20,000 bases of DNA from Trichoplax sp. H2 (GCA_003344405.1 NOWV01000105.1:240175-260174); one strand, 5' to 3'. Positions 749 through 20,000 are shown, numbered from the stretch's first letter. The notes: generated by a model not told the origin, from the letters alone. Made by a program: numbers and translations.

Positions 749-1011
749 CTAGAAATTTTGTTCGTTGTTTTCTGACAGAATGATGTCATTCCTACCAATA
801 GTTTGCAAAGCCCGCTGCAATCGGCTAATGCTAACATTGGGATGTGCCTTTTTGTACCAGTAATTGAGCAATTCCATTGCCTGGTTAAAGACATGGTCGC
901 GATTTTGTTCCATTATAACCTTAACACAAATCGTTGGATCTAGGATGGCCGCTAACTGTGGCCAGTCTGTGCCAATAGAGCTTGCAATAGGGTAAAAATA
1001 CTTCCTAGGAT
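749..1011 (-). CDS. Gene A terminal exon: Death domain
   Basis: Acceptor ATGTAG|AT at 1012/1011 is in frame with the micro-exon. Translation DPRKYFYPIASSIGTDWPQLAAILD...AMELLNYWYKK...LQRALQTIGRNDII matches the Death-domain pattern (IG.DW..LA..L, L..W, L..AL..IGR.DI). TAG stop at 749..751. Confidence 0.87.
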
Positions 1012-1631
1012 CTACATAGTACAAGTAGAAACTTTACTATGAAGTACTATACGAGTATGTTGTAACAATTTCAATTGCAAATAAATTACTTGATTTTACA
1101 TGATATAAAGTACAATATTTACATAATGAGCTCTTATGTCGCAATTAGAGTTGAATAATCATCTGGTTCGCTATAATTATTTATGTAATGGTAATAATGG
1201 CATTAGCGATAGCACAGGTGGAACTGTACTTCTATTGTAAGACTAATAGAAATAAATGGCTCTAATTCGAATTTGAATAACTCTGTAAACGAACTACTTA
1301 CTGGACAAACAATGTACAAATAAATTAAGATTGAATATTTTTTAATTCATAAATCATTATTTATTATGTCAAGTAGCTTACTAGTAGCTAGAATATTCTA
1401 ATGACGATCTTAAAAATTCGTCAGTGATATCATTATCTAGTAAAACTGTATGCGATCATATCATCAGTGGCAAACGTAGCTTAAAGAATTACATCCATTG
1501 ACGAGGTAAGGTATTCCTATGTTAGAATTTACAAGGAGTAATTGCTCTTAATCATATTTGAATCGATCTACAATTGGATTACTAAATGCAATTGAGAATG
1601 ATTGATAGATATCAATTCAATAGAGGTTTAC

Positions 1632-1658
1632 CTTCATCTTTGGTATCTTTCCATCGGT
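1632..1658 (-). CDS. Gene A 27-nt micro-exon, linker peptide (D)RWKDTKDE
   Basis: Reads CTTTAG|ACCGATGGAAAGATACCAAAGATGAAG|GTAAAC. It is phase 1-1 and frame-preserving, and the same 27-nt exon is present in genes B and C. Confidence 0.85.
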
Positions 1659-1922
1659 CTAAAGTAGTGGAATAAAAATAGCAATAATCGATTAATAGTT
1701 CTATCGTTTAAGTAATCAATGCAGTAGATTAGTGCCCATAATTTTTGATAATAATCAACTATTGTTTACGCTATTACAAAATCACCTTACATTAAATAGT
1801 AAAATAGCTATGATACAGTACATTTATGTCTCTTTGCTTGCTCTAGCGTATGACTTTAGTTTATTATATCATAAAAAGTGATAATATAAGAATGAAGCTG
1901 CTGTTTATTCTCACATGCTTAC

Positions 1923-3947
1923 CTATCAAGAATTTTTCATTATAAATAATCCAATCGTTTAAAGATTGACTGGCAAATTCCATCTTACAATGCTTACATC
2001 GAATCCAATTTTGATCTTCTTCCTTGTATTCTTCAGTTATACTTGTTTGTGTATTACATTCACTACATTTGACGAAATATCGACAATCGGCCCCTTTAAA
2101 CTTAACCATCCTATCATTGACAGTAGAGATGAGTTTATTCTTGACAATTTCGTGTGGCCGTTTGACAAATATAGAATTTGTAACTTTATCGATAATCGAT
2201 TGACTCCTCTCGGGCTCATTTATTTTCTGATAGCAATATTGTAAACCAATATGAGATTCCTCTTTCTTGACTACAAGATAATGATTGTCATTTGCTAAAT
2301 AATATTTGGCACATTGATAGTATAATTCTACGTCCGTATTATTCCATTCCTTTAAACATGAAGATAACAAGCAATAATAAATTCCATCTGGAAGATATGG
2401 AATATCTGTATGCTCGTATCCGATGTAGAGCCAATCTGATTGATGATATTTTGATAAATCAAATGGCTTAACATCATATCGTAACAAATATGGAACAAAG
2501 TATTGACATTCTTCGCCGTTGTCGTTCTTCTCATTTGTAATTGAACATAGAATATCATAAGCATGCATGAGTGCCAATATAGTTTGCTTACTATTGTCAT
2601 CTAAATTAAATTTATAAATAGCATGATCAATGTATGATCTTGATAATTTTCCTCTTTGGCTTGCTATCTCATAGTCACGTTTTATCTGTGCACCTCCTTG
2701 TACAAAATCTTGTAATTGAATAATAGAACGAAATATATTTAATAACCAATCGACATTAGTTATAATAATTCCGTCGTCGCCTACTTTATCACAGTAGATG
2801 ACTTCTCCTAAATCGTGTAGATACATTAGCATAGCGATTAATTCATCATGGTTTTCATATAATCCGTATTGTTGAGACAAGTTTACTATTTGTTGCATTG
2901 TCATAATATTATGCACTTGAGAATGTCTAATTTGATTGATAATAGAAGATGCGGGTTGATTGTTACTGTTAGTAGGGAGCGATTTATTTAATATTCTAGC
3001 CATGATATACCATCGAATAGGTATAGGATTCGTAATAAATGGCAGCGATTGTACAAATGCCTTAATGATACCATGTAAACGAAGACAACATTGTCGACGC
3101 TGCTCTAGTGTCGACGGAGTACTATCAAGAGGATTGCAATTAAAAATAATACCAGAAGAATAGATATGATTGGCATAAGAAGGCATGCGAGACGTCAATG
3201 TAGACACAAATTGATTGAATCGAGTACGTCCATTTTCTTCATTGATAATACAATCGCCATGAGAAGCTACTAAAATAATAATAGGTAATGAATGCTGTGA
3301 AGGTGGTAAATGCTGTTCATCTTCACTTTTAATGTTGACATTGATGGTACTTTGGCTTGTATGGCCAGCTATGATTGATGTAAGCCATTCTTGCATAGCT
3401 TGTAAATACGTCGTTTTGAGTAATTGGTTGTTCCTTGTTGTTACCTTGTCGTTAATGTCTTGATTAATATTAAATACTAAAATATAAATACTATTGACGG
3501 AGATAAAGGGATAATGAGTAAGATGATAGACGGCATGACCTGCGAAATCCCATATTTTAACATACTGATTGTTTTCGTCTTTGTCTGCATTTTGATTTTC
3601 TATTGGATCTATGTCGGTTACTTGCTGACTGATGTTATCTTGACTATTGATACTTGTTTGGGCTAACTGTTGTATGACTGTCTTGACTTTATCGTCTAGT
3701 ATTTCAGTCCAATCACAACCCTCTAAGTTACGAATATTATAATATTCGGTCTCTACCATAATATCCAAATTCTCAGCCACTTGTGTCGGAGATGGATTGT
3801 CTAGTGGTTGCTTGGTAAATATTTTTCGAACAGAAGTTTTGCCCACATTGCGAGGACCAATGAACATGCCTCGTATTAAATGATTAAAGCAATGACCATG
3901 TTTTAATGCTTTGCTATATGCATTGTAATATTTCTTTTCTTGCAAAG
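1923..3947 (-). CDS. Gene A coding exon 2: Roc (Ras of complex proteins) GTPase + COR region + C-terminal CxxC-x19-CxxC motif
   Basis: The acceptor TTCTACAG|CT at 3948/3947 joins in frame after an 80-nt intron (3948..4027). Motifs: P-loop GPRNVGKTS (3832..3858), G3 WDFAG (3538..3552), G4-like VASHGD, COR-like MLMYLHDLGEVIY, ITNVDWL and YFVPYLL. Donor ATAG|GTAAGC at 1923/1922 is phase 1. Confidence 0.9.
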
Positions 3948-4027
3948 CTGTAGAACAACAAAATACAGAATAGGGTTACGGTTATCCATCGCTCTCTCGT
4001 CTACTACTGTATTAAAACTCCAATTAC

Positions 4028-6146
4028 CTTTCTCTTGTACGTGTTGATTGTTATGACTGCCGTCAATAGTATTTGCTGGCGCTGTAACGTTGTTGATTTG
4101 ATTCGGTTGAAACCGTTCAACGGTACTTTTGATCCAATTTCTCGCTGTTGATGTCGACGATTTCGGCTTCCGGAGAGTGATATCGATATTCTTTTTGGTC
4201 CATTTAACTAGGCGATCATTTCCGCTTAAGGTTGCGATATACAGTGACTTCTTAAAGTTATCCACAGCCTGATCGTACTTGCCTTGGCGACGATAGACAA
4301 GTCCTATGTTGTTATATGACTTCGCAACGTGGGGATGATTGTGACCAAGGACTGACAATCGAATTTGCAGTGATTTGTCATACATATCCACAGCCTGATC
4401 GTACTTGCCTTGGCTTTTATAGACATTGCCTATGTTGTTATATGAGTTGGCAACATCAGGATGATTATGACCAAGGACTGACAATCGAATTTGCAGTGAT
4501 TTGTCATACATATCCACAGCCTGATCGTACTTGCCATGGTGACGATAGACAACTCCTATGTCGTTATATGAGTTGGCAACATCAGGATGATTATAATCAA
4601 GGACAGCCAATCCAATTTGCAGTGACTTGTGATACATATCCACAGCCTGATCGTACTTGCCTTGGCTTTTATAGACATTGCCTATGTTGTTATATGAGTT
4701 GGCAACATCAGGATGATTGTGACCAAGAACTGACAATCGAATTTGCAGAGATTTGTCATAAATATCCACAGCCTGATCGTACTTGCCTTGGTCATCATAG
4801 ACAAGTCCTATGTTGTTATATGAGTTGGCAACATCAGGATGATTATGACCAAGGACAGCCAATCCAATTTGCAGTGATTTGTCATACATATCCACAGCCT
4901 GATCGTACTTGCCTTGGCTTTTATAGACATTGCCTATTTTGTTATATGAGCTGGCAACATCAGGATGATTGTGACCATGGACTGCCAATCCAATTTGCAG
5001 TGATTTGTCATACATATCCACAGCCTGATCGTACTTGCGTTGGCTTTTATAGACATTGCCTATGTTTTTATATGACTTCACAACATCAGGATGATTGTGA
5101 CCAAGGACTGACAATCCAATTTGTAGTGACTTGTCATACATATCCACAGCCTGATCGTACTTGCCTTGGTCATGATAAACAAGTCCTATGTTGTAATATG
5201 AGTTGGCAACATGGGGATGATTGTGACCAAGGACTGCCAATCCAATTTGCAGTGACTTGTGCAACATATCCACAGCCTGATCGTACTTGCCTTGGTGACG
5301 ATAGATAACTCCTATGTTGTTATATGAATTGGCAACATCAGGATGATTGTGACCAAGAACTGCCAATCGAATTTGCAGCGACTTGTCATACATATCCACA
5401 GCCTGATCGTACTTGCACAAGCGATCATAGACAACTCCTATGTTATTGTATGACCACGCAACATCGGGATGATTATGACCTAGGACTGACAATCGAATTT
5501 GCAGCGACTTATCATACATATCCATAGCCTGATCGATCTTGGCTTGGTCATGATAGACAATTCCTATGTTGTTATATGACTTCGCAACATGGGGATGATT
5601 GTGACCAAGAACTGACAATCCAATTTGCAGTGACTTGTTATGCATATCCACAGCCTGTTCGTACTTGCACAAGTCCCAGTAGACGCACCCAATTTGATGA
5701 TAACTATCGGCAAGACGAGCATCCTTTTCGTCTAACCATTTTAATTTCATTTCCAACGATTTCTTACCGTCTTCCAGTGCTCCGTTGAAATCCCCTTGGC
5801 GTCTCTTAATCTCGCTTTCTCTTTGTAAACATTGAGCCATGCTCACTTCATCTTGCAGTTTAGTAGCCACAGTTTGTCCCTTATCACTCCATTCAACAGC
5901 TTCCTTGAATTGATATTGTAAAGTGTAAATGTCACAAAGACCAAGATAAATATCACATGCAAGTCGATCAATATCCGCACTAGGATTCGACAACGAAGCA
6001 ATCGCATCGACAGCTTGTGTATAACAAGATAGTCCGTCCACCAACTGGAAGGCAGTCTTGCATGAGATGCCCTTTTCGTACAGTGATTGTATACGGGTAT
6101 GGTGAGGAAGCACACTCGTAGAACAGACAGATTCATCATCAGCCAT
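4028..6146 (-). CDS. Gene A coding exon 1: TPR-repeat domain (about 3 divergent N-terminal TPR-like units plus 12 x 42-aa kinesin-light-chain/nephrocystin-3-like TPR units) of a TPR-Roc-COR-Death protein
   Basis: Lies within ORF 3903..6158. The ATG at 6146 (MADDESV) follows an acceptor-like TGCAG|GAAAAG at 6153/6152. Repeat consensus is VANSYNNIGxVYxxQGKYDQAVDMYDKSLQIxLxVLGHNHPD. The donor GAAAG|GTAATT at 4028/4027 is phase 1 and sits at the same position as the donor in gene B. The start codon is uncertain because an upstream exon is likely. Confidence 0.88.
4230..5740 (-). repeat. Intragenic tandem repeat: 12 near-identical 126-bp units encoding 42-aa TPRs
   Basis: The anchor 'tccacagcctg' (one variant 'tccatagcctg') recurs at 4261, 4387, 4513, 4639, 4765, 4891, 5017, 5143, 5269, 5395, 5521 and 5647. 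The period is exactly 126 with no indels. Outer boundaries are approximate. Confidence 0.97.
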
Positions 6147-8934
6147 CTTTTCCTGCACTCAATTCAAAAATATGTTAGTTAAAGGCTTGAACGACAGGTT
6201 AGAGACAAATAAGATTCAAATCAAGCTTCGTTGCAACCATTAATTGCTAATCATCGGATCGATATTATCTCTGCGTATTAATGAGGTTATGTCGGAATAG
6301 TTGTACTTGCGTGCCAGTCGTAGTTCAACAGAACAACATCAATTATTCCATTATACACAATTTTCAAGCATCAATAAATCAACTTCTACAATATTGCCTA
6401 TCTATTCCGCATGGAAGATTATCCGAAAATCATTCAATCAATCTCTGTAGATAATTACTGAAGACAACGCTATCGGACAATCGTGTGCTTACGTGTACAT
6501 TAACAAAATGCACTCCAGCTTACAAATAGATTATACTCATAATCATAATAACCATCAAACAACAATCTTTTTATTCTAATAGACAACGGTAAATAAATGC
6601 TAGCCACATCAATGATAGTGTAAAATAAGAAAGGATGCTTGCAATACAGTTTCGTTGGCGTCGTTTACCTATCTTTAATTTCTATTTTTACTTGAAATAC
6701 AATGTATAATGATGGATACCTAACGAAATAGGTTACTTACCAATGGATGTTTTAAAAATCGGCTAATAACAACTTGATGATTTTGCTGTTACGTAGATTT
6801 AATCCTACCAATCCGACTGCGCGCTGCTTATTGCAACAGGAGCTAATGGATAAAAAGAGAACGACAGGTGACATAAAACTCTACTCGGCTAAACAGCTCT
6901 ATCCAACTGCATATACACTAAATACACGCACTGATCAGCACATCTAAATACTACAGTGTATCAGCGATTACAGACTACTAACTCATTGGTTATTTCCTAA
7001 CTATAAAAACTCCTTGCAAAGTCCTGCACGAGGAAGGGCACTATTGGTAACCATGAAGCTTGCTTGCTAGAAATCCCAGTTAAACCTGCGGCTATGACAC
7101 GCTTTTATTCGTAAGTAGTCCCTATGTGGATGATGCGATAGCCGACGGATAAAGGTAAATAAATAAAATGAAGGTAAGGTAAATAAATAAATTAGGTTTC
7201 TTTGCAATGATTTGTGCATAGTCATAAGACCTTATGAAATTAGAACAGCTCTAATTTGTATTAGTTTATTAAATACGAGTTTAAGATTAACCTACGAGTA
7301 TCTTCCCTACCGAATTTCTTATGTCTTGTTAGCTTAGTAAGCCGTCAATCATATTATTTGCTAAAGTTTGATGCCAATGAACTATTGCATGGGTAGATAC
7401 AAGTTACCAACAAAATATCGTTCTCTCTAAGTAAGGATAGTTGACATATTATCCTTATCCATTTTCTTCTATTACAGTCTATCAATAAAGCTATCATTTT
7501 ATCAACAATTTGATTGCAGTCTACCGTACGCTATTTATTGTCGTGGCTCCGCAGTCTGTGTTCATTGCAATTCAATTTGATAATGAGCTTGTTACTGCCA
7601 TATAAAACTCTCAAATTATCAACTATGAAATTCATCAAGTAATAACTTAAAGGAGCGACTGTTCAGGATAGGTTTCTGATAGTAAACTGCAAGAAAGAAT
7701 AGCGATGAATATTATATAACATACTGTAGAGACATAGAGAAATGATAGCAGTCTATTTCAATATACATCATTGACATTATCCGATCCATTGAATCTACTG
7801 TAGCTCAACAAAGAATGCCATAAATTTAATAAAAGATATTGCTTGTAACAAATATTATCATTTTGTATACAACGTTCGTAGTCCGATGATGAATTAATGA
7901 TAGACATTTGCATGGTCAAATTGTAAGCCATACTAATAAAGATTGTACAATCGCAATCATGAATTTTTTAGACTAACCAGATACATCAACAACGGATTAC
8001 AACATTGGATATGCAATAAAACGGATCAATCACTTGACTGATCAGCAGTAGCATATTCTACTTTAATTGGCAACAGCCATCCAATACAGGCATTGCTGTA
8101 CAACAAGGCACTATCCTCTCAGCACTTACGCTCGCTGCATTCTCGCGCCAAAGAAGCTTCTTAGTCAACAAGTTCAGCTTCGATCCATGCTCACAGAACT
8201 CATTCTCAAGGATAGGTAATCATTTCTACGAGCATATCTCAACAGTTTTCAACAAACAAGAAGTATTTTATGATCGGTATTGTGTATGAACTAACTAGAG
8301 TTGATACTCCAACCGTATGTAAAGTTCGGATCACTCTGACTAGTTTTCGAATACTGACAAAGCTAAGTCCTTACTACCACTCATTCGTTTATTGATAATT
8401 ACAACGGCTTTTATATGTGCGCCGTCAACACTTACAGTGTAACGTTGTACAATACATAGTTTATGATATCCATATCTAGAATTAGGTAGACTTGTAAATT
8501 GTAAATTAGTCACGATAATTGATTCTATAATTATACAGCGTAAGTTAACTATCAATATGGACTGTAGATAATAACGCAGTTATCATCCATCCATCTTAAG
8601 CGTAGCATTACAAAATACATATATAGAAATACTGTAAGACATATCAATCGGAATAGAGTAAAGTAAGATCAAATTAAAATCTCCTGACAGGGTTGGCGTG
8701 AGTACTGTTTGGCCTGATTGCAAATTGCATGCTATCGATACAAGATGTAACCCTTCATACATACTGGAAGTACTGCAATCCATAGCAATTCCATATGATT
8801 ACTACCTTAATTTTATTCAATAATTAACAATCAATGAGTTGTTAATATACACCATTTAAAGAAAATTTTTAGTATACTTTTATAAACTGTTTGACAAATG
8901 ACAGTAAAAAATCAACGGAATACAGTAGCGCACG

Positions 8935-10062
8935 ATGAAGATGATATCAAGCGATTCAGCAGATGGCTTAGTTATTGGACTCATCGTCGATGATGATCGC
9001 CAATTAAACAGTGGCCAACAGTAATTTCTGCTATCGGAAGAACAATCTTCATATTAATTCAAGGAGGCTAAAAGATGTAACATAAAAAGAATCATCTACG
9101 CTTACTTCTCGTATGCACTAATTTGCACTACTTTAACATAAAAAGAAACATCTATGCTTACTTCTCGTATGCACTAATTTGCACTACTTTAACATAGATG
9201 TCGAAGGCACGCTAATGTTGGCTTCAGACGATAGAGCTAAAATGGACATGGTTAGTACTTTCATCAACTACATGGAGGAGAATTGCCAAGTCTATGCTAT
9301 ACATGCATGCTTACAAATTATTTCTAGTCAAAATAATATACCAATCTCAGCTCTAAAATGCTGAACAGTGCAAAATGGAACAGAGAATTTGGACAGTCTC
9401 CACGCTGTACTATGTAATTTTAAGTAAACTACTTCTTAAAGCTTCCTAAACTGTTTCTACATGAAGTTGATACCAATGCAATAAGTTCAAAACCAATATT
9501 GAGCGGTTAACTGGTAATATCAGGGTAACTTGCTCAACTCTGGTTAAATCAGGTGATGACATTTTACAGGTGCACTAGCTGTACTACCATCTTGTACCAA
9601 GTACTAACTCGTCTAAAATAATCAAGACAGGAGCATTCTCGTGGAAGCTGATATGCTATCGAAACTGCGATTTGATGCAGTACACTAATGTATTCTAGCT
9701 TATAAACTGTCCGTTTACTGTACAAGACTAATCAATTTCTCCATGAGGAGTACTAGAGTAGCTTCTCAAACTTGGGTAGTAACAACAAAGGTTGTACCCA
9801 CTCCATGAGCAGTAGCGCTCGACGATTACAGGAAAGGTACCGATGGTGCAATTTTAAACGAACCATAGACGGACTCTACTTGATTTTATTCATTTGATCT
9901 ACCATTGACTCAAATTATTCAAGAGTCTTTTGCTCGTTTTAGCTCATACTGTCTTGATGAAATGTCGTACAAATTGGCAGGACAAGCCTGGAGCGAGATG
10001 GAAAGTTCAAATACAGTAAAGCAATTTCGTCTTAATTTCGTACTTCGTAGCAATCATGACTA
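8935..10062 (+). pseudogene. Possible decayed plus-strand gene relic of uncertain identity
   Basis: Coding-like stretches are broken by stops (GLVIGLIVDDDRQ..., VEGTLMLASDDRAKMDMVSTFINYMEENCQVYAIHACLQ..., MLSKLRFDAVH*CILAY...). An intron-like segment GTAAC...CACTAAT...TTTAACATAG (9077..9197) would join the flanking frames in phase 1. Confidence 0.25.
9078..9196. repeat. 56-bp direct tandem duplication (about 2.1 copies, 2 mismatches)
   Basis: The unit taacataaaaagaa(t/a)catcta(c/t)gcttacttctcgtatgcactaatttgcactactt starts at 9078 and 9134, and a partial 'taacata' starts at 9190. Confidence 0.95.
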
Positions 10063-10524
10063 GAAGCTATTCACAGTCGATAACTGGCAATTAACTAGCT
10101 CTTCTTACAATTCATTATAGCAAAAGATTTCTTTATTGTCAGGATCTTTATAACTTTCATAAAAGTAGGTTAATTTTACCGTCTGAAATAACGCCACTTT
10201 GCATAAAATAGTACAGCATGAACAAGTTTAACTCACGATTAGTACAAGCAAAAATGAATAGAAACCGTAATTAACAAACGCTTTAGAATACTTTACAATT
10301 ATAAATGTTTATCCTTCACCAGCAATTTGTGAGTGCTTCATAAGTATTTAAAGTAAATTTACGATGCTTATAATGTTGTCATTTCGTTGTGCACAGGAAT
10401 AAAATGTTAAAAACTTAATTTTTACATCAGCAGATTCTTACACAAAACGTGATTGTGATGGCAAAGCTGAAAGATTGAAATCAATAACATTAAGCATTGC
10501 TAATATTGTCCATTAAATTGTTGG

Positions 10525-10530
10525 TTTATT
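10525..10530 (-). terminator. Candidate polyadenylation signal AATAAA for gene B
   Basis: AATAAA on the minus strand about 135 nt after the gene B stop. A similar spacing occurs for gene C (17115..17120). This is weak evidence in AT-rich DNA. Confidence 0.3.
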
Positions 10531-10663
10531 TCAATCAAGGCGAAATAAAACATTATTTTCTTATAACGCTAATTATTTTGATCTTGAAAAAATGCAAATA
10601 AGCACAAATAGACCATCAATAAATTAGAATCTACACTATAGTAGACGAAAGAAGATTAGTCCT

Positions 10664-10920
10664 CTAGGAATTTTGTTCTTTTGGGATAATAATATCATTT
10701 CTGTCAATCGTTTCCAAAGCGTTCCGCAATAGATTAAGAGTAGCATTTGGGTATTTCCTTCTGTACCACTGATTAAGCGATTGGATGGCACTGTTATAGG
10801 TATGACCACGATGTTTTGCTTCGATAACCTCAGTATCAATCGTTGGATCTAGGACTGTAGCTAATTTTGTCCAGTCTATACCAACACAACTAGCGATCGA
10901 GTGAAAATAGTTTCTAGGAT
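10664..10920 (-). CDS. Gene B terminal exon: Death domain (not shown in the supplied ORF track)
   Basis: Acceptor TTATAG|AT at 10921/10920. Manual translation is DPRNYFHSIASCVGIDWTKLATVLDPTIDTEVIEAKHRGHTYNSAIQSLNQWYRRKYPNATLNLLRNALETIDRNDIIIPKEQNS*. About half of the residues are identical to the gene A Death exon by hand alignment. TAG stop at 10664..10666. Confidence 0.87.
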
Positions 10921-11315
10921 CTATAAGGCACGAATGAATATATTACCACATACGTCATCTTAAAATTACTAATTGAAATTATCTTATCATGGACTAGCCG
11001 AACCCGCATACCCAGTTGTGTGCTATCAATATAACTCAATAATATAAGGAAGTACCACATGATTTAAATGTAGATACATTTGTTTTAATTTAACCTAATT
11101 CATTTCACGTATTGTTGGATACTCGCAAGTAAAGTAGTGGAGTAGTAGTTTATATGTTCTAATTATAATCTGAAATATTCGTTGGCATTCTAATTAGCTA
11201 GCAGAACTTTTTGCGATAATATCATACATAATAATCACTTCTAGTCACTATTATAATTAAATGGGTAAATTAATTACTATAATTATGAATAGAAAACGGT
11301 TTAATTGACACTTAC

Positions 11316-11342
11316 CGTCATCTCTCACATCTATCCATCGCT
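11316..11342 (-). CDS. Gene B 27-nt micro-exon, linker peptide (E)RWIDVRDD
   Basis: Reads CCTTTAG|AGCGATGGATAGATGTGAGAGATGACG|GTAAGT and is homologous to 1632..1658 and 18090..18116. Confidence 0.85.
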
Positions 11343-12042
11343 CTAAAGGAATGAAATAAAGAATAGGAATAATAAATTGGCAGTTCTATGGTAGTTGAAT
11401 TGAAGCAAATAGTAAAAGTGATGCACAGTAAAATGAAATGTACACCTAGAAACGGTTTACAGAGAATGCTCTCTTCCTCTTTCTCTATTTATGCGCTCTA
11501 AAACCTCTATATATGCGTGTCCTATAAAGCTATGGAACTGATTAGCTACGATCTAAAATTAAGAACATTCTCATACTTCTGATGGTAATGAATACTTTTG
11601 ATGTTACAAAGCAATTGCGGAAAAAATTCAACGAGTTCTATATTGCCAAGTAAACAGACTATAATAGATGAACTGGCTATACCGAAAGATTGCTATCTAT
11701 TTATTATTAATAAGAAATATATGTAAATTATAATTAGTAAATACTACCACTTCATCAACTATTATAGATTGTACAATAATTATTGTAATTTGAGAACTAA
11801 ATTAAGATGGAGATCATTGCCACTCTACTTAATCTCGGATGTGATTGAGCTCGATTGCATTAGTGTTTTGCTACAGATTAAGCAAAGGTGATGTTGTAAT
11901 AATCTTATTGTAGTGTGTAGGAACGTTTTAACCATCGAACACTTGATATTACGAATAACTTAGGCTAGCGCTCTTATCAGATACATGACGGTAAAAAAAG
12001 ACGTGGCAATAACAAAGCTACTGGCTGATTTTATATCCTTAC

Positions 12043-14193
12043 CTATCGATAACTCTTTATTATAAATCATCCAATCGTGGAGAGATTGACTAGCAAATTG
12101 CTGAGTACAATACTCGCATCGAATCCAATTGCTGTCTTCTTCTCCATATTCTTCGGCTATACTTATTTCTTCATTACACTCGTTACATTTAACGTAAAAT
12201 CGGCAACGAGCCCCTTGAAATTTTATCATCCTTTTATCCACAATGGAGATAAGCTTATTCTTGACAATATCGTGCGGCCGCTTGTTAAATATAGAATTCT
12301 TAACTTTGTCGATCACCAATTTACCAATGTCCAGCTGATTGATTTTCTGATAGCAATATTGTAAACCAATGTAAGGCCCTTCTTTCTTAATTATCAGGTA
12401 ATGATCATCATTTGCTAAATAATATTTAGCGCATTGATAATATAATTCTACAACCTTGTTATTCCATTGTATTAAACAAGATGATAGCAGGCTGTGATAA
12501 ATTCCATATGGAATATCTCCTTTCTCGTATCCGATGTAAAGCCAATCTGAGGCATGATATTTACGCAAATCAAAGGGCTTAACATTACGTGGTAACAAGT
12601 ACGGAACAAAATATTGCCACTCTTCTGTAGTATCATCCAGTTCAATTCTAATACAAAATAGGATATCATAAGATTCCATGAGTTTCAATATAATTTCCTT
12701 ACTATTTTCATCTAAATTAAATCGATTAAGGGCGTTATCAACGTATCTTCTTGGTAATTTTCCTGTTTTATAGGCTATATTATAATCTAGCTTTGCTTGT
12801 AGACTTCCTTGTCGATGATCTTTCAATTGAATAATGGCACGAAATATATTTAATAACCAGTCGACATTAGTTATAACCATCCCGTTATCGCCTATTTTAT
12901 CACAGTAGATTACCTCTCCTAATTCGTGTAGATACATTAGCACTGCTCTCAATTCATCATAACTGTCATATAATCCACATTCTTGTGATAAGGTTACTAT
13001 TTGTTGCATAGTCATAATATTACGTACTTGAGTGTCTTGAATTTGGTTAATAATAGAAGACATGCCTTGATTATGATGACTACGGATACATTTATTCAGT
13101 ATTGTAGCCATAATATATCGTCGAAAAGGAAATGGTTCATGAATAAATTGTAATGAAAACGAAAATGTCTTAATAATATGATGTAAACGATTGCAACATT
13201 CTCGGCGCTGATCTACTGCTGATGGGCTGCTATCATTAAGATTGCAATTGAAAATAATATTAGAAGAGTAGATGCTACTCGTATAAGACGGCATAGAAGA
13301 GATCAATTCATCGACATACTCATCATATCGACGATTTCGTTCTTCTACTTCTGTTGTACAATCACTGTGAGAAGCTACCAGAATAATGATAGGTAAGGAA
13401 AATTCTGCATCCCTGTCGTCAATATTAACGTAAACTTGATTTCGACTGCTGTGGCAACATATTATTGATACCAGCAATTCTTGAATAGCTTGCGAATAGG
13501 TCATATTGAGTAATTGCCCTTCTCTTGTCTTAACTAGATCTTTGACACCTTGCTCAATACTAAATACAAGAAAATAAATACTATTGGAAGACCTAAATAG
13601 ATATTGACAAACGTGGTAAATAGCTGGATCACTGAAATCCCATACTTTCACATATTGATTATCTTCAAATTTGTCTTTATTTTCGTTTATTCTAGGCGCA
13701 TAAGATTCTGCAAAACTAAATTTAGACTCAGTCTTATTAGAAGCATCTGCTATATTATCACTACTCATAGAAGACTGCTTATCGTCATCCTTTACAATGG
13801 TTAAAGATAGATTATCTGCCATTGTTAGCTGATCTTGTTGACTTTTATTTGATTTTTGCATGTCGTTATTTTGTTGACTTTCTAGCTCTGCTACGGAAAA
13901 TTCCCTTATAGCGGTCTTGATTTTATCATCTAACACCTCAGTAAAATTATATGTCTTTGAATTTTGAAGACAATAAAATTGATTGAATTCAGTTTTCAAT
14001 ATGCCATCAGAATGATTAACAACTTTATCTGGAGGTTTATTCTTGTTTGATTCTTGTTGAGTAAACACTTTCGCAATAGATGATTTGCCAATACTAGGTG
14101 GGCCAATAAACTTACCATGTATCAAATCATTAAAGCAGTAGCAATTATTCAAGGCTTTATTGTATACATTATAATATTTCTTTTCTCCTAAAA
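12043..14193 (-). CDS. Gene B coding exon 2: Roc-like GTPase (degenerate G3) + COR + CxxC-x19-CxxC motif
   Basis: Acceptor TTTACAG|TT at 14194/14193 (104-nt intron) gives VLGEKKYYNVYNKAL, matching gene A ALQEKKYYNAYSKAL. Motifs: P-loop GPPSIGKSS (14078..14104), WDFSD (13628..13642), VASHSD, LMYLHELGEVIY and YFVPYLL. Donor ATAG|GTAAGG at 12043/12042. Confidence 0.9.
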
Positions 14194-14297
14194 CTGTAAA
14201 TTGAAACGGAAGTTAGAAGAATGATACACAGATTAGACAGTATTTATTTATATTGGCTATGTAAATTAACATACTAAAAAATCAACTACAAGTTTAC

Positions 14298-15816
14298 CTT
14301 CATCTTCTGTGTGTCGAATAATATCACTATCAGGATTGCTACCGTTACTATTCCTATTTGTTAACGTTGTAAGATTGTTAGCATCGGTGCCTGTAAACAC
14401 TCCAAACCATCTAACCAAATCGTTGAAATATCTTTCAGCTAGTGTTGTACTTTGATAATAATGTGCTTGTTGCTGCTGACGAGTTGTTGCGACATGATTT
14501 CTAGTCATCTTAACGTAGGGATGATTCTCGCCTAAAGCCGGTAGGATAGCTTTAATTGTCTTGTGAAACATAGAAAGTGCCTCATCGTACTTGCCCTGTT
14601 CCTTATAGATAACCCCTTGGCCGTTATATAATTCAGCAATAAAGCTATAATCGAAATCGACGGCTGACGGTCGAATTTGCATGGATTTATTATATATCGA
14701 AAGAGCGTCTTCATACCTGTTTAGATCTATATATATTTTTGCTATACCAAATAATGTCTTTGCAATTTCGGGATGATCGCGATTAAGCGTTGATAGTTGC
14801 ATTTGAAGTGATTTCTCAAGGATACCACTGGCAAGATTGTATTGGCCTTGTTTGACATAGACATTTCCAAATTTGCGATATGCTCGAGCAATAGCAAAAT
14901 GATTTTTTTGGGGAAAGATTGTATGTCTCATATCTAGTGACAAGTTATATTTAGAAATAGCCTGTTGATAGTCCCCATTATTGCTACCAACATCCCCCAT
15001 ATGCTCATAAGTGTCCGCAATATGGGCATGATTTTTAGAAAGGAGTGCTAATCGAATGTATAATACATTATTTAGCATCGTAAAAGCCACTTTATGCTGG
15101 CCAAGATATGAGCGACAAACTGCCATTATCTGAAGTGAATTCGCTATAAGAAGATGACGATTACCGAATAAGCGCAATCGAATTTTGTGAGCAATATTTA
15201 GCATAGAAAGTGCCTTTTTAAAATTGCCTTGCCGCACATAAAAAATTCCTTCCGTATGATAGGAGTATGCGATATCGGGATGGTTTTCATCCAATACCTT
15301 CAATCGGATTTCTCGTGCTTTTCGAATCATAGCCAGCGATTCTTGATATTTGCCGCCATCGTCGTAAATACGTGCAAGTTGATGATAGGAATGAGCAACA
15401 TCTGTATGGAGGTATGTACCTAGGTAGTTTATTTTTATATCCAGAGATTTGCCACAGCATTCGAGCGCTTTATCGAAATCACCTTGCCATCTTAAAATTA
15501 AAGCTTGCTTATCTAAATAATGGGCTATTCTGATTTTATCTTGCAGTTTGTCAGCTAGATATTTCCCTATATCGTAGTATGATTTAGCTGTTTCCCATTG
15601 ATTTTTTAACGTGTAAATATAACAAATATGAAGATAGATATCACATCGAAGTCGATCAATATTATCGCAAGGAGTAGATATCGATTCAATATGATCTAAG
15701 GCTTGTCTATAGTGAATTAGACCTTCCTCTAGATTATAAAAAGTAACATATTCTTGGCCCTTTTCGCAAAGTGATTGTATATCATTCGGAAACTGTGTTA
15801 ATAGATCTGCATCCAT
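14298..15816 (-). CDS. Gene B coding exon 1: TPR-repeat domain (divergent N-terminal units plus about 7 diverged 42-43-aa TPRs)
   Basis: Lies within ORF 14266..15846. An acceptor-like AAACAG is immediately followed by ATG at 15816. The N-terminus is homologous to gene A (IQSL.EKG, IDRL.CDIYL, A.KLQD, QGDF..ALE..KSL). Repeats follow H..IA.SY...G..Y..QG.Y..AL. Donor GAAG|GTAAAC at 14298/14297 is phase 1. Confidence 0.87.
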
Positions 15817-17114
15817 CTGTTTCAATTTGATGTGAAGAAAAAGCAATCAATAGGTATATTAAAAGAGATTAGCTACTCTAGCTTATAATATCAAAACTGA
15901 ATCGATTCTAGACTCTAAGGAAAGTTAGAAGAACGATAATTAAATTAGACTTAGTTGTATTGCAATGCACACCAAATTATATCGTACTTCACAACAATTG
16001 CCAGACTATAATATCATTTTATTTTCGATCTAATTTTATGCTAATATATATACATACGTAACATATATATATTAATAATGGTCAGCATCTATTCTATTAC
16101 CTCTATTGTCAATATCAGTGAAAGAGTAGGTAGTAATGATTGACGAGTAAAGATTACCATAGTAACTTGAACGACAGATAATTGTTAAACAAAATCATTG
16201 GTGAGTATTTAAATCTAGAGCTCCTCCTATATAGGAGAAAATCAATGATGGTTCATGCTTCTACTAAAAGTCTTCTACTTAATTGGGTCTTTGGTAATTT
16301 ATTCAATAATTACTTTTTACGAATTCATCGTTATCTTGTAAGGGCGCTCGGATCTATCTATAATATTTTATTTACATATTTTTAATCAAATTTGAGTTTT
16401 TATTCATGGTCTCTGTTGTCATTACTTTGGATCAAAGTTTAAGCATTGGGCTATCGACAGCAAAACTTACATAAGTCATTCTAAATGCGTATACTTTAGT
16501 CATCAGCTGTTGTTACACAGAAAGTTTTCAATTTACCTTCAATAAGATTTTGCTTCAGTAACATACTGCAAAACCAAGTAGGATACGTTAAAAATTTATT
16601 GCACGCAAGTACGCTCTATAAAAGTATGTAGAACAGGTTTAAAGTCAATCCGCTGTCTTTATAACACTTGCCCTGTAGCATAAGATCATTTTATCATCTA
16701 GTGAACTACATCCAGGATTGATAATAAATTGACAGTATATCATGCCGTTAATATTCTAAAGTTTTTCTACTTTTCATAGACATGGATAAACTACTTGTCC
16801 TGTAACGATTTTTTTTATGATTATCATAAGATTTTACCCACAGTCAATTTGGTTATAAGCTCACTGTTGTACGCGTGAACTGAAAATAAAATTACGTGCT
16901 ATCTAAATTAGCTGAATAATAATTGCAATATTAAACGACAAATGAACGAGCTAACTAGCCACTACTGATGTAGTTAATTCTACATATGAGTACATACATC
17001 TAAAACTTGACTTCAAATACCTGTTATATCAATTATTGCAAAGTTAATAAATTTTAAAATACCAGTAGCTATGAAAATAACAAACGTAGATATTACTTGA
17101 TTATGAATTTCTAT

Positions 17115-17120
17115 TTTATT
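17115..17120 (-). terminator. Candidate polyadenylation signal AATAAA for gene C
   Basis: AATAAA on the minus strand about 145 nt after the gene C stop. This is weak evidence in AT-rich DNA. Confidence 0.3.
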
Positions 17121-17264
17121 CGTTAACATTTGAAGCATTCGAAAGTGTACTTTACAGCATATCAAATATCAGAGTTTTACATTGACAAGATCTAATTCTG
17201 AGCTCTATTATTTTGCAATTACAAATGTGTCTCGGTTAGTAAACCGCAAGAGAAGTTTGTATAT

Positions 17265-17542
17265 TTAGCAATTTTCGACCATTTTTTCTTCGACTTGGTT
17301 AGCTATAGTATTGATTTTCATCTTACGTAAAGCTGCAATAACTACAGAGATATCTGCATTTTGACCAGCGCTATTTTTCCACAATATTAGAACTTTATAC
17401 ACCTTATCGTAGCGACTATGTTCCCGATTTAATTTAATTTCATCAATTTCTATGCTGGATAAATGCAGCAAGACTCCTAAACGAAATAAATCATTTATAT
17501 GGAGTTGCTTAGCTATGATGTCGAAGTACACAGTATCCATTT
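17265..17542 (-). CDS. Gene C terminal exon: Death domain of a different subtype
   Basis: Acceptor AATATAG|AA at 17543/17542 (phase 1) joins in frame. Translation EMDTVYFDIIAKQLHINDLFRLGVLLHLSSIEIDEIKLNREHSRYDKVYKVLILWKNSAGQNADISVVIAALRKMKINTIANQVEEKMVENC* has Death-fold features (LG..L.L...EID.I, L..WK...G..A, AL..M). Confidence 0.8.
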
Positions 17543-18089
17543 CTATATTGAAATAAAATTTAAAATATTAGCCACACTCCAAGTCTTTAGGGTTGTATCT
17601 GATCTGTGATGTAAATCTAATACTAATCTTGAGCAATTCTTTTTCAGAACAACTGTAATTTTAATACTACTTATGCAGGGTTTATCAAAATAAAACTGGA
17701 ACTAATACTACTTGCTAGTATGGTCTTTTTAATAATCAATATTGGGTTAATTCAATTTTATTATTTTCATGAATTCTTACAAAAGTTTGTCCAAAAAATT
17801 CTTAAAGTAAATTAAATCAAAGAGTTTATTCATGGTTGACTGATTATTTTACAGAGTAGATCACTAATAGTTTGAATATTTTACTTGCAATTCTCTAAAA
17901 CTAGTTTGTGTTATCGTTAACTAGCAGAACTTTATGCAATGATGTCAAAGACTAGATGAAAGTATTACATTTACTTAAGGTAGAATTCTTATAGAGAATA
18001 TGCTCTCAATATTACTTCAATAATTCCAAAATTAATCACTGTAAACAATTTTGAAAGAATTAAATGATAATAATTTAGTAGAAGCTTAC

Positions 18090-18116
18090 CATTATCTTTT
18101 ACATCTTTCCATCGCT
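18090..18116 (-). CDS. Gene C 27-nt micro-exon, linker peptide (E)RWKDVKDN
   Basis: Reads GTTTAG|AGCGATGGAAAGATGTAAAAGATAATG|GTAAGC and is homologous to the micro-exons of genes A and B. Confidence 0.85.
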
Positions 18117-18844
18117 CTAAACAAGTAAAATAAAACAAGAACAATCGATTAATAGTTTTGTAGTTGCTTTGATAGAAAGAGATTGTAAAATCATAAGCAT
18201 GTCAATGAAATGTATCACGTATATTTAGAAATAATTTATAAAAAGCTCTCTCTCTCTTTCTCTGCAGGTACCTATACATGCAGATATGCTATAGTAAGTT
18301 TTATATCCTGTACAAAGCTGAGGAATGAATTGGCTGTCATTTGATTTTAAACGGTGTTCTCATTTACTAACATAGAAGAATATAATATGCTTCAAAGTAA
18401 TGATGGATAAAATCTAGCCATTACTATTTAACACATAAATGAATACAGCAGGATTAAATTCTCACCTCGAAATAGTACAAAATTATAATACGTTTTTAGT
18501 CACATGAAATATACATAAATTAGAAAATTTTTATAATTAATCCAGTGCAGCACACAAAGCGATAATTAAGGTAATCTTCTAAATTACCTACATGATAGCA
18601 TACATTTCCTTTGCTTTAATTACTTCAGCACATAATTCTGCTTATTTATATCAATGTTTTTATATATAAATAAGATAATCAAAAATAGAGTCATGATAAT
18701 CACGATGTAAAAATAAATGTGCTAATTATTAAGAATACAGTAAAAGGAATGCGTAATGGAAGAGCTCTTGCTTATAGTACATTGCAATCGTAATAATGAT
18801 AATAAAAAGAATATAAAAGCTATAAATTGTGTTCACATCCTTAC

Positions 18845-20000
18845 CTATCCATAATTTTTCATTATAAATCATCCAGTCGAGAAGAGATTGACTAGAAAAC
18901 TGCATACTGCAATATTCACATCGAATCCAATTTATATCTTTTTCGTTATATTTATCGGCGATACTTGTCTCTTCACCACATTCACTACATTTAATGTAAA
19001 ATCGACAACAAGCTCCTTTAAGCCTTACCATCCTACCATCGACAATCGAGATTAGTTTATTCTTAACAATATCTTGTGGTCTGTTATGAAATATAGAATT
19101 CTTAACTTTGTCAATAACCGATTTGCCGATTTGTGGATGATTTATTTTCTGATAGCAATATTGCAAAGCGATGTGAGATTTCTCTTTCTTAACTATAAGA
19201 TAGTAATCATCATCTACTAAATAATATTTGGCACATTGATAGTATAATTGTACTTTTGTGTTATTCCACTCTTTTAAACAAGAGGATAACAGACAATAAT
19301 AAATTCCATCAGGAAGGTATGGAAGATCGATATGTGTGTATCCAATGTACAGCCAATCTGATACATGATATTTTGATAAATCAAATGGCTTTACATCATA
19401 ATGCAACAGGTATGGAACAAAATATTGGCAGTCCTCTCCATTATTACCCTTTTCATTTCTAACAGAGCAAAGAATATCATAAGCTTCCATCACTTTTAAT
19501 ATGGTTTCTTTACTAGTTTCATCTAAATTAAATTTTTTAATAGCATAATCGATGTATATTCTTGATAATTTTCCTGTTTGGCTGGCTATCTCATATTCAC
19601 GTTTTATTTGTAGACTTCCTTCTAGACGATCTTGTAATTGAATAACTGAACGAAATATATTTAATAACCAATCGACGTTAGTTATAATAATTCCGTTATC
19701 GCCTACTTTATCACAGTATATTACTTCTCCTAAATCATGCAGATATATTAGCATTGCTTTTAATTCGTCATCACTTTCATATAATCCACATTCCTGAGAC
19801 AAAGTTACTATTTGTTGCATTGTCATAATATCATGTACTCGAGAAGCTCGAATTTGATTCATAACAACCGAGATCGCATGATTATGATGGTAACGGATAG
19901 ATTTGTTTAATATTGTAGCCATAATATACCATCGAATAGGAATAGGATTACGAATAAATGGCAATAATTGTACAAATGTCTTAATAATATAATGCAAGCG
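18845..20000 (-). CDS. Gene C (partial, truncated by window edge): COR region + CxxC-x19-CxxC motif of a third paralog
   Basis: The frame is open from the window edge (RLHYIIKTF...) and strongly similar to genes A and B (PIPIRWYIMA, YLHDLGEVIYCDKVG, YFVPYLL, PYLPDGIYYCLLSSCLKEWNN). Donor ATAG|GTAAGG at 18845/18844 is at the homologous position. Confidence 0.9.

Follow-up and report, generated by a model that had tools for sequence, protein, structure and literature searches.

Tandem TPR-Roc-COR-Death genes with exchanged Death exons in Trichoplax sp. H2

Introduction

Roco GTPases have been studied almost only through LRRK2, the protein of Parkinson's disease, and a few bacterial models. Here we describe three tandem genes (A, B and C) in a 20,000-nucleotide stretch of Trichoplax sp. 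H2 DNA (GCA_003344405.1 NOWV01000105.1:240175-260174; hereafter the window), which encode a TPR array, a Roc GTPase, a COR domain and, at the C-terminus, a Death domain. The family itself is already in print. Civiero et al. 2014 (Chem Biol; PMC4104024) reported at least 17 ROCO genes in T. adhaerens, in which TPR, leucine-rich repeat (LRR), CARD, death and AAA domains flank Roc-COR, and this was repeated by Teng et al. 2024 (PMC11378527). The genes described here belong to the same family, and T. adhaerens members are among their matches. A preliminary description of the window had mentioned an expanded Trichoplax Roco family without functional work, which the paper of Civiero et al. bears out. 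The portions of that paper compared here present domain cartoons, with no mention of gene structure, tandem layout, zinc ribbon, Death types or partners; they speculate on chemotaxis and phagocytosis and do not discuss NLR-like sensing (PMC4104024).

LRRK1, LRRK2 and the bacterial Roco proteins of C. tepidum and M. barkeri have the order of N-terminal repeat, Roc and COR in common with the Trichoplax proteins, as well as the WDFAG motif. They differ in that identity is 11-14%, the repeats are LRR, ANK or ARM and not TPR, and the output of the LRRKs is a kinase with WD40 and not Death. A zinc ribbon after COR-B, which genes A-C carry, is not mentioned in the descriptions of LRRKs or bacterial Roco compared here. 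DAPK1 resembles the present proteins in its order of Roc, COR and C-terminal Death and in its link to cell death. It differs by an N-terminal Ca/calmodulin kinase and ankyrin repeats, both of which are lacking in genes A-C, where a TPR array is found instead. DAPK1 was absent among the listed sequence and fold matches.

Prokaryotic AP-GTPase/COR proteins have been described as conflict systems with a fast-evolving N-terminal repeat and a variable C-terminal effector or adaptor; several copies occur per genome, their C-termini differ and, inside one genome, the adaptors match each other closely (Kaur et al. 2021, eLife; PMC8195603). The Trichoplax genes show the same repeats, GTPase-COR, variable C-terminus and multiple copies, a likeness of architecture only. 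The systems of Kaur et al. are bacterial and have LRRs and many enzymatic effectors, whereas the Trichoplax genes are intron-bearing animal genes with TPRs and with metazoan Death domains exchanged as exons. In brown algae, expanded LRR-ROCO genes have been put forward as candidate immune receptors, with repeat diversification at the exon level (Teng et al. 2024, PMC11378527; see also Zambounis et al. 2012, PMC3341825). The algal genes have one LRR per exon and no Death domain, whereas in Trichoplax a single exon holds the whole TPR array and shuffling affects the Death exon. The idea of an immune device made of repeat, Roc-COR and variable output is therefore already in print for bacteria and brown algae.

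NLR and other STAND proteins also combine a repeat sensor, a nucleoside triphosphate (NTP) switch and a death-fold adaptor, and placozoan NLRs use TPR or WD40 repeats and CARD, DLD or DD (Kamm et al. 2019; PMC6321704). Genes A-C have a Ras-like GTPase with COR as their switch in place of a STAND ATPase, and they carry the sensor at the N-terminus and the adaptor at the C-terminus. As they lack NACHT and NB-ARC, they are analogues of NLRs and not members. The preliminary description had likewise called the family NLR-analogous. It had also called the domain order inverted relative to NLRs, which overstates the case, since repeat, Roc, COR and output follow each other in the normal Roco order that has already been described (PMC8195603, PMC11378527).

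For the tandem array, micro-exon, zinc ribbon, exchange of Death exons and matching CARD-Death and ZU5-UPA-Death proteins, no description was found in print, supplements and figures aside. No paper was found on Trichoplax with nephrocystin-3, and a search on Trichoplax, death domain and ZU5 gave unrelated papers only. Trichoplax together with PIDD, CRADD or RAIDD led only to PMC11463336, whose single mention of Trichoplax concerns Bcl-2.

We tentatively propose, at somewhat less than an even chance, that the TPR-Roc-COR-Death proteins act as cytosolic switch-scaffolds in a pathway of cell death or innate immunity, working like NLRs and prokaryotic AP-GTPase systems but not themselves NLRs.

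Results and Discussion

Three tandem genes with a common exon structure

The window was assigned to Trichoplax sp. H2 by protein search, in which the Roc-COR open reading frame (ORF) of the first copy was 100% identical to RDD40336.1. It is AT-rich eukaryotic DNA (GC 27-41%), and in a stop-to-stop ORF list the big ORFs lay nearly all on the minus strand. Pfam placed TPR_12/TPR_10 in ORFs 3903-6158 and 14266-15846, Roc and COR-A in ORFs 1864-3975, 11960-14212 and the open-ended 18729-20000, and Death in ORFs 749-1033, 10664-10942 and 17265-17567. The ORFs make up three paralogues, all on the minus strand and head to tail. In each, a TPR array is followed by a Roc GTPase, COR, a zinc ribbon (CxxC..CxxC), a micro-exon of 27 nt and a Death domain.

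Gene A (749-6146) is complete, with coding segments 6146..4028, 3947..1923, 1658..1632 and 1011..749 and a product of 1477 aa; the model agrees letter for letter with the public protein P0001 (RDD40336.1, named 'Nephrocystin-3'). Gene B (10664-15816), also complete, is read from 15816..14298, 14193..12043, 11342..11316 and 10920..10664 into 1317 aa with no stop, and is identical to the public protein P0181 (RDD40335.1). Gene C (17265-20000; segments 20000..18845, 18116..18090 and 17542..17265) is partial. It is truncated 5' by the window edge, where its frame is open, and its Roc part lies beyond the window. As read from the sequence, there are four coding exons in each gene, and the nine introns are all GT-AG, in phase 1 and at homologous positions. 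The preliminary description had joined the TPR, Roc-COR and Death ORFs in frame through homologous GT-AG introns into proteins of 1.3-1.5 kaa, in at least three head-to-tail copies. The public models of genes A and B and the RNA joints of gene A agree with it, as do the protein sizes and the three copies, the third of them partial in the window. Missing from its account of the genes were the micro-exon, the zinc ribbon and the presence of two unrelated types of Death domain.

The micro-exon lies between the Roc-COR and Death exons at 1632..1658 in gene A, 11316..11342 in gene B and 18090..18116 in gene C (minus strand, the latter two from sequence reading). It is conserved, and the frame is kept with or without it. 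The encoded peptides, DRWKDTKDE (A), ERWIDVRDD (B) and ERWKDVKDN (C), form a short charged linker; in gene A, phase-1 introns at 1659-1922 and 1012-1631 flank the micro-exon. The intron sequence around it is still about 67% alike between copies. DNA identity is 80.5% over 1171 nt between A and C, 73.6% over 1683 nt between A and B, and 77.7% over 1164 nt between B and C. On these sequence comparisons we regard genes A, B and C as old tandem duplicates.

Exchange of the Death exon between genes

The Death exons are located on the minus strand at 749..1011 in gene A (exon 4; Death type 1, stop codon at 751-749), 10664..10920 in gene B (type 1b) and 17265..17542 in gene C (type 2). Each gene has one Death exon, and no alternative Death exon was found within the window. 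Pfam Death was matched at 4e-10 by gene A, 2e-7 by gene B and 1e-10 by gene C, all over 22.6 bits. Among solved structures the gene A domain is nearest to the ankyrin-1 death domain (7e-5) and the gene C domain to that of FADD (1.6e-6). Two Death types are thus present in the window: those of A and B are only 24-28% identical to that of C, with no BLAST match at 1e-3.

The Death types do not follow the relationships of the COR domains. The closest COR relatives of gene A bear the other Death type, namely P0002 (92% COR identity), P0017 (94%) and gene C (73%), and the Death type of gene A recurs where COR is only 57-66% identical, in gene B, P0003 and P0026. In the COR tree, gene A forms a clade with P0002 and P0017 (92-94% identical) at an SH-aLRT support of 99. 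The Death alignment rejects this clade, with p 1.4e-25 in the approximately unbiased (AU) test and a delta lnL of 174. The incongruent trees show that the Death exon, bounded by a phase-1 intron, has been exchanged between genes.

Closely similar Death domains also occur outside the Roco family, in non-Roco Trichoplax proteins found by a profile search with the three Death exons. P0178 (H2, 456 aa) has a Death domain 89% identical to that of gene B, and the two are sisters with a support of 100/99; P0184 (H2, 103 aa) is 91% identical to the gene B Death domain. The gene C Death domain is 74-76% identical to those of P0002, P0179 and P0180. For the Death domain of P0179 (T. adhaerens, 394 aa) the identity is 76% with gene C and 85% with P0002, and for that of P0180 (H2, 225 aa) 74% and 84%, respectively. 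In an RNA-Seq run (X15), a contig ends at 10921 with the peptide ...PTKDDSVLAD, which is joined, with an unchanged phase-1 boundary, to a Death exon of at least 95% likeness to that of gene B. The peptide matches the boundary ...PTKD(D/H)S(V/A)L(S/P)D of the ZU5-UPA proteins, and its upstream letters are absent from the window. The Death exon thus begins at one common boundary in unrelated genes, and it has moved, or has been homogenised, between them.

Residues 1-110 of P0180 are CARD-like in a language-model/structure atlas (score 0.92); the ten best named clusters are all CARD, and CRADD is among the structural neighbours. Residues 1-290 of P0179 are ZU5-UPA-like (score 0.97) and contain an SHFS motif, which we take to resemble the cleavage site of PIDD/UNC5. 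The common cassettes suggest that output may run by way of PIDDosome-like partners to CARD-caspases, for which H2 has two genes (Kamm et al. 2019, PMC6321704). A complex prediction for the Death domains of gene C and P0180 gave a score of 0.13 and a mark of 0.34; made without controls, it speaks neither for nor against binding.

P0178 of H2 and P0179 of T. adhaerens, both of ZU5-UPA-Death type, have nearly the same N-terminal body and different Death types (1b and 2a). The difference could reflect alternative terminal exons, paralogues, or an exon swap between very close lineages. In three H2 proteins (P0009, P0010 and P0011), a Death profile of our own making located a Death domain between the TPR array and Roc, at about residues 514-684; in P0010 this internal domain is additional to the C-terminal one.

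A proposed mechanism

Death domains signal by homotypic assembly. In the mechanism that we propose, the TPR array would hold the protein closed, or would bind a ligand or a guarded host protein. Roc-COR would turn this event into a nucleotide-dependent conformation or a change between monomer and dimer; gene A keeps G1, G3 and G4, and GTP-linked cycling between dimer and monomer is described for bacterial Roco (PMC5714945, PMC11052575). The Death domain, once exposed or clustered, would assemble with proteins of the matching type; the cassettes in common are observed, and binding between their carriers is presumed. For the gene B type the partner would be a ZU5-UPA-Death (PIDD-like) protein. 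For the gene C type, the partners would be a CRADD-like adaptor of CARD-Death form together with a ZU5-UPA-Death protein. CARD-caspases would be next to receive the signal, and the exchange of Death exons would rewire sensors to different output hubs.

A wider form of this idea is that placozoans possess a counterpart of the apoptosome or inflammasome that is based on a GTPase. Diversified TPR-ROCO sensors would be wired to a few PIDDosome-like hubs by Death 'address labels', both kept matched and re-assigned through phase-1 exon exchange among genes not otherwise related, so that the prokaryotic principle of 'effector-associated domains' would be realised in an animal by exon shuffling or gene conversion. 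We consider this wider form rather unlikely. The exchange of Death cassettes is the part most worth pursuing. From the common cassettes come specific candidates for partners, TrispH2_011725 (CARD-Death) and, of ZU5-UPA-Death form, TrispH2_011919 and TRIADDRAFT_52843, so that the wiring idea is directly testable. LRR-type NLRs, RIG-I-like receptors and cGAS-STING are absent from Placozoa (Kamm et al. 2019, PMC6321704), and a large ROCO-Death family could therefore be a main intracellular alarm system of an early-branching animal.

Roc-COR, nucleotide motifs and zinc ribbon

Exon 2 of gene A (1923..3947, minus strand) encodes the Roc GTPase, COR-A/COR-B and the zinc ribbon. In the corresponding ORF (1864-3975), Pfam Roc was matched at 1e-10 (42.3 bits against a cut-off of 27 bits) and COR-A at 5e-11. 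COR-A was over its cut-off in all three genes, at 1.5e-11 in gene B and 3e-11 in the exon 2 part of gene C (18845..20000, minus strand), which holds COR and the zinc ribbon. The genes are Roco by their Roc profile, by COR directly following Roc in the same chain and by the G1, G3 and G4 motifs. An AlphaFold2 model of gene A exon 2, built on a 25-sequence alignment, had a pLDDT of 79.4 and a pTM of 0.83. Its best Foldseek matches were LRRK1 (3e-17), C. tepidum Roco (5e-16) and then LRRK2, in a range of 3e-17 to 1e-14. By sequence, the best PDB match of the gene A Roc-COR was the LRRK2 Roc (7e-5). Kinase, Ank, NACHT and NB-ARC gave no Pfam match at E 0.01 in any exon of genes A, B and C, and the earlier statement that the TPR/Roc-COR/Death proteins are kinase-less holds, as does the expectation of TPR, Roc/COR and Death profile matches.

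All three motifs of gene A lie on the minus strand. The G1 P-loop is GPRNVGKT (3835..3858, from the translation; conserved in the family), the G3 motif (DxxG) is DFAG (3538..3549), which aligns to the WDFAG segment of the LRRK2 Roc, and a G4-like SHGD is translated from 3253..3264. Within the family the P-loop is present in 20 of the 22 rows that cover it, 20 of 25 relatives have the G3 Gly, and [ST]H[GA]D occurs in all 24 aligned relatives.

Gene B deviates from this pattern. Its exon 2 (12043..14193, minus strand) has a longer low-complexity insert in Roc, followed by COR and the zinc ribbon (12107-12187), and its motifs are GPPSIGKS, DFSD and SHSD. The variant DFSD (13628..13639, minus strand) replaces the Gly of DxxG by Asp. 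Roc scored 9e-5 and 23.1 bits, under the 27-bit cut-off, yet aligned throughout. It is possible that some copies are not working switches, and that gene B is a pseudo-GTPase, a decoy, a regulator of its neighbours or a decaying gene; the G3 change, the low Roc score and the enlarged insert would fit this. Against it, the frame of 1317 codons is intact over four exons, and so are the P-loop and SHSD. The T. adhaerens orthologue (P0069), 99% identical, keeps DFSD, and Asp is fixed at the same position in the CARD-bearing subfamily P0044/P0045/P0048, so that it may be a tolerated variant. For the latter two reasons gene B is not called dead, and we hold an inactive gene B to be improbable.

The zinc-ribbon-like motif CxxC-x19-CxxC of gene A (1987..2067, minus strand) follows COR-B. 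Its cysteines, C627, C630, C650 and C653, are near-invariant in the family alignment, and the AlphaFold2 model has four short strands there. In a partial protein of Trichoplax sp. H2 (P0015, 488 aa, from a 2252-bp contig), the zinc-ribbon segment occurs twice in tandem, which is either a real duplication or an artefact of assembly or annotation.

The TPR region

Exon 1 of gene A (4028..6146, minus strand; start codon ATG at 6146) encodes an N-terminal cap and a TPR array of the kinesin light chain (KLC)/NPHP3 type. It is separated from the Roc-COR exon by intron 1 (3948..4027, minus strand; 80 nt, phase 1, GT-AG). The ORF 3903-6158 matched Pfam TPR_12 at 1e-212 and TPR_10 at 5e-148. Within exon 1, a tandem array at 4259..5668 (minus strand) consists of 11.2 copies of a 126-bp unit, for which Tandem Repeats Finder (TRF) gave 86% matches without indels; they encode 11 TPR units of 42 aa. 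The units vary mainly at unit positions 2, 5, 6, 7, 8, 18 and 37, seven of the 42. Exon 1 of gene B (14298..15816, minus strand) encodes a diverged, non-repetitive TPR region (TPR_12 4e-59). The TPRs of genes A and B are 30-38% identical and their Roc-COR 54%. P0002, with 92% COR identity to gene A, is 231 aa shorter than the gene A protein.

TPR_NPHP3 was matched at 365.6 bits by gene A and 115.3 bits by gene B (cut-off 100). These scores agree with a role of the proteins as trafficking or cytoskeletal scaffolds, in which cargo or ciliary proteins would be bound by the TPRs, association with membranes or microtubules would be under the control of Roc-COR, and Death would be a generic interaction module. 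So do the best Roc-COR fold matches, LRRK1 and LRRK2, which act in trafficking, and a cnidarian relative with a CAP-Gly domain. However, in Pfam only TPR models were matched in this region, with no kinase, NPHP3_N, or KLC heptad or motor-binding region in genes A-C, so that the database names Nephrocystin-3 and Kinesin light chain reflect the type of TPR alone. Moreover, 9 of the 12 long Trichoplax members end in Death, and their Death domains match those of the CARD- and ZU5-UPA-proteins. We see little chance that trafficking is the main function.

Family size and relatives in other animals

Family size was taken from protein databases only. Fourteen long proteins matched the Roc-COR exon, 12 of them from Trichoplax (10 H2, 2 T. 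adhaerens), and nine of these 12 carry Pfam Death. A search among shorter proteins gave 36 matches: 17 named from Trichoplax, 17 unnamed ENA/Logan predictions, one predicted from the window and one weak JGI match. The C-termini of the Trichoplax relatives are Death type 1, Death type 2, CARD or none. For the Roc-COR of gene A no T. adhaerens protein above 58% identity was found, and H2 has four at 82-94%. The missing close matches may mean lineage-specific copies, or only the poorer annotation of T. adhaerens (Kamm et al. 2019, PMC6321704).

When 1.84 billion representatives were searched with a profile, 5106 reached E 1e-3 and 166 reached 1e-30, and scores fell sharply beyond the placozoan set. 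Sixteen of the next-best relatives were scanned with Pfam and 14 were looked up by name. Thirteen of the named relatives are non-placozoan: Glandiceps, Amphiura (3), Anneissia, Strongylocentrotus, Owenia, Actinia (2), Lingula, Branchiostoma (2) and Montipora. Among the architectures are Ank-Roc-COR-Death, DED-Macro-Roc-COR-Death, Bcl-2-Roc-COR-caspase, Roc-COR-caspase, Roc-COR-CARD, Roc-COR-kinase-ZU5 and NACHT-Roc-COR-trypsin. A Death, DED, CARD, caspase, Bcl-2 or ZU5 module is present in eight of the 16 and NACHT in two, and TPRs were found in none of the 16. From these architectures, TPR-Roc-COR-Death seems to be the placozoan version of a wider animal coupling of Roc-COR to the death machinery. 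The earlier analogy with a repeat sensor, an NTP switch and a death-fold adaptor is reasonable, and it gains from relatives in other invertebrates whose Roc-COR is fused to Death, DED, CARD, caspase, Bcl-2 or NACHT. The design of repeat, Roc-COR and death fold recurs in hemichordates, echinoderms, amphioxus, annelids, brachiopods and cnidarians, so that GTPase-switched death platforms would be an overlooked animal-wide theme and not a curiosity of DAPK1.

Several of these fusions have no description in the Roco and AP-GTPase literature compared here: P0089 of Owenia fusiformis (Bcl-2 and caspase), P0109 of Lingula anatina (caspase), P0084 of Anneissia japonica (DED, Macro and Death) and P0094 of Actinia tenebrosa (NACHT and a trypsin-like protease). 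In P0052 (TRIADDRAFT_62071, T. adhaerens) and P0186 (H2, 'Apaf-1, partial'), NB-ARC and APAF1_C are followed by Roc and COR-A, which places a STAND ATPase and a Roco GTPase in one chain.

The relatives also bear on a homeostatic role. The proteins might be regulators of homeostatic or stress-triggered apoptosis like DAPK1 and PIDD1, responding to endogenous signals such as damage, detachment or cell-cycle errors, with the TPRs autoinhibitory or a scaffold and with no recognition of non-self. DAPK1 likewise ends in Roc-COR-Death, and the Pfam Roc model is named 'Roc, domain of DAPkinase'. The partners implied by the common Death cassettes are PIDDosome-like, the nearest animal relatives bear core apoptosis modules (Bcl-2 and caspase in Owenia, DED and Death in Anneissia), and gene B is 99% conserved between H1 and H2. 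On the other hand, a large tandem family with divergent TPRs, amplification of TPRs within a gene and swapped outputs is more typical of diversified receptors than of one lone housekeeping regulator, and we find a purely homeostatic role rather unlikely.

Evidence bearing on an immune role

Genes A-C may plausibly have an immune role. The immune role, TPR ligand binding and Death clustering inferred in the preliminary description go beyond what the sequences show. The following points weigh against the proposal of switch-scaffolds in a cell-death or innate-immune pathway. To our knowledge, the Death identity of 74-89% is far above that between known interacting Death pairs, and the near-identity may reflect recent exon exchange only and not partnership. 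The CARD and ZU5-UPA assignments of P0180 and P0179 come from the language-model/structure atlas; Pfam on P0178-P0180 gave Death and nothing else at E 0.01, and a PDB sequence search gave Death-domain matches only. TPR arrays of the type of gene A also bind cargo in kinesin light chain. At the seven variable TPR positions the ratio of nonsynonymous to synonymous differences (pN/pS) is 1.06, against 0.25 elsewhere, with the positions picked after the data had been seen. Gene B and its T. adhaerens orthologue, which is split into TRIADDRAFT_59496 and TRIADDRAFT_59495, differ at 12 of 1208 residues (7/790 and 5/418) and are 99% identical, so that this copy at least is not visibly fast-evolving between lineages. 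Roc has no occurrence in the survey of placozoan immunity by Kamm et al. 2019 (PMC6321704), and no link of placozoan ROCOs to immunity was found in the literature.

RNA and read evidence

Contigs of X15 show two joints within gene A, 3947/4028 (skipping 80) and 1658/1923 (skipping 264), both with CT..AC ends. The shorter sides of these joints have only 20 and 27 letters, respectively, so that the RNA evidence, which concerns gene A only, is supportive and not conclusive. Loose contig ends read from the micro-exon (at 1632) into the Death exon and, in return, from the Death exon (at 1017) into the micro-exon. A further joint, 6151->6740 (skipping 588), marks an intron in the 5' untranslated region (UTR) of gene A (6153..6740, minus strand; GT at 6740-6739, AG at 6154-6153). 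As this intron ends 6 nt before the ATG, the first, non-coding exon lies above 6740 in the spacer. There were next to no X15 contigs over 11340-14674 and 15342-20000, which is not evidence that genes B and C are silent.

One X15 joint, 1658->18845, also with CT..AC ends, skips 17186 nt and connects the micro-exon of gene A to the end of COR in gene C. Long-range or trans-splicing was considered and rejected, because one side has only 27 letters and the joint fits a P0002-like paralogue with an A-like micro-exon, a C-like neighbourhood and a C-type Death domain. Most likely it derives from a paralogue elsewhere.

Two other runs, X1 and X2, behave as DNA, with contigs that cross introns and spacers, and were excluded from the splicing evidence. 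Contig depth figures could not be used to rank genes. The high summed depth over gene A in X1/X2 may stem from close paralogues and is not a copy number.

Spacers and minor variants

The spacer between genes A and B (6160..10660, no strand) is unique sequence of 4.5 kb. Neither remnants of the family (tblastn with P0001) nor a ZU5-UPA gene were found in it. No Pfam family reached its cut-off in 10 spacer ORFs, Rfam had no match anywhere in the window, and the repeats in the spacer were trivial only. Minus-strand RNA contigs from X15 and X4 lie over 8004-9295 despite the lack of an ORF with a Pfam family. Their joints at 8261/8647 (with 13 replaced letters) and 9099/9156 are without splice signals and look like strain indels, and a 56-bp unit at 9078-9196 has two copies in the window and one in X15. 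In X1/X2 there is an in-frame 3-nt deletion in the Roc insert of gene B at 13340, and a 4-nt deletion and a 28-nt insertion at 16050-16070 in the spacer between genes B and C. Compared with the window, long contigs show a difference of 1.8% over gene B (59 of 3319 letters) and of 0.2-0.4% over the B-C spacer and gene C.

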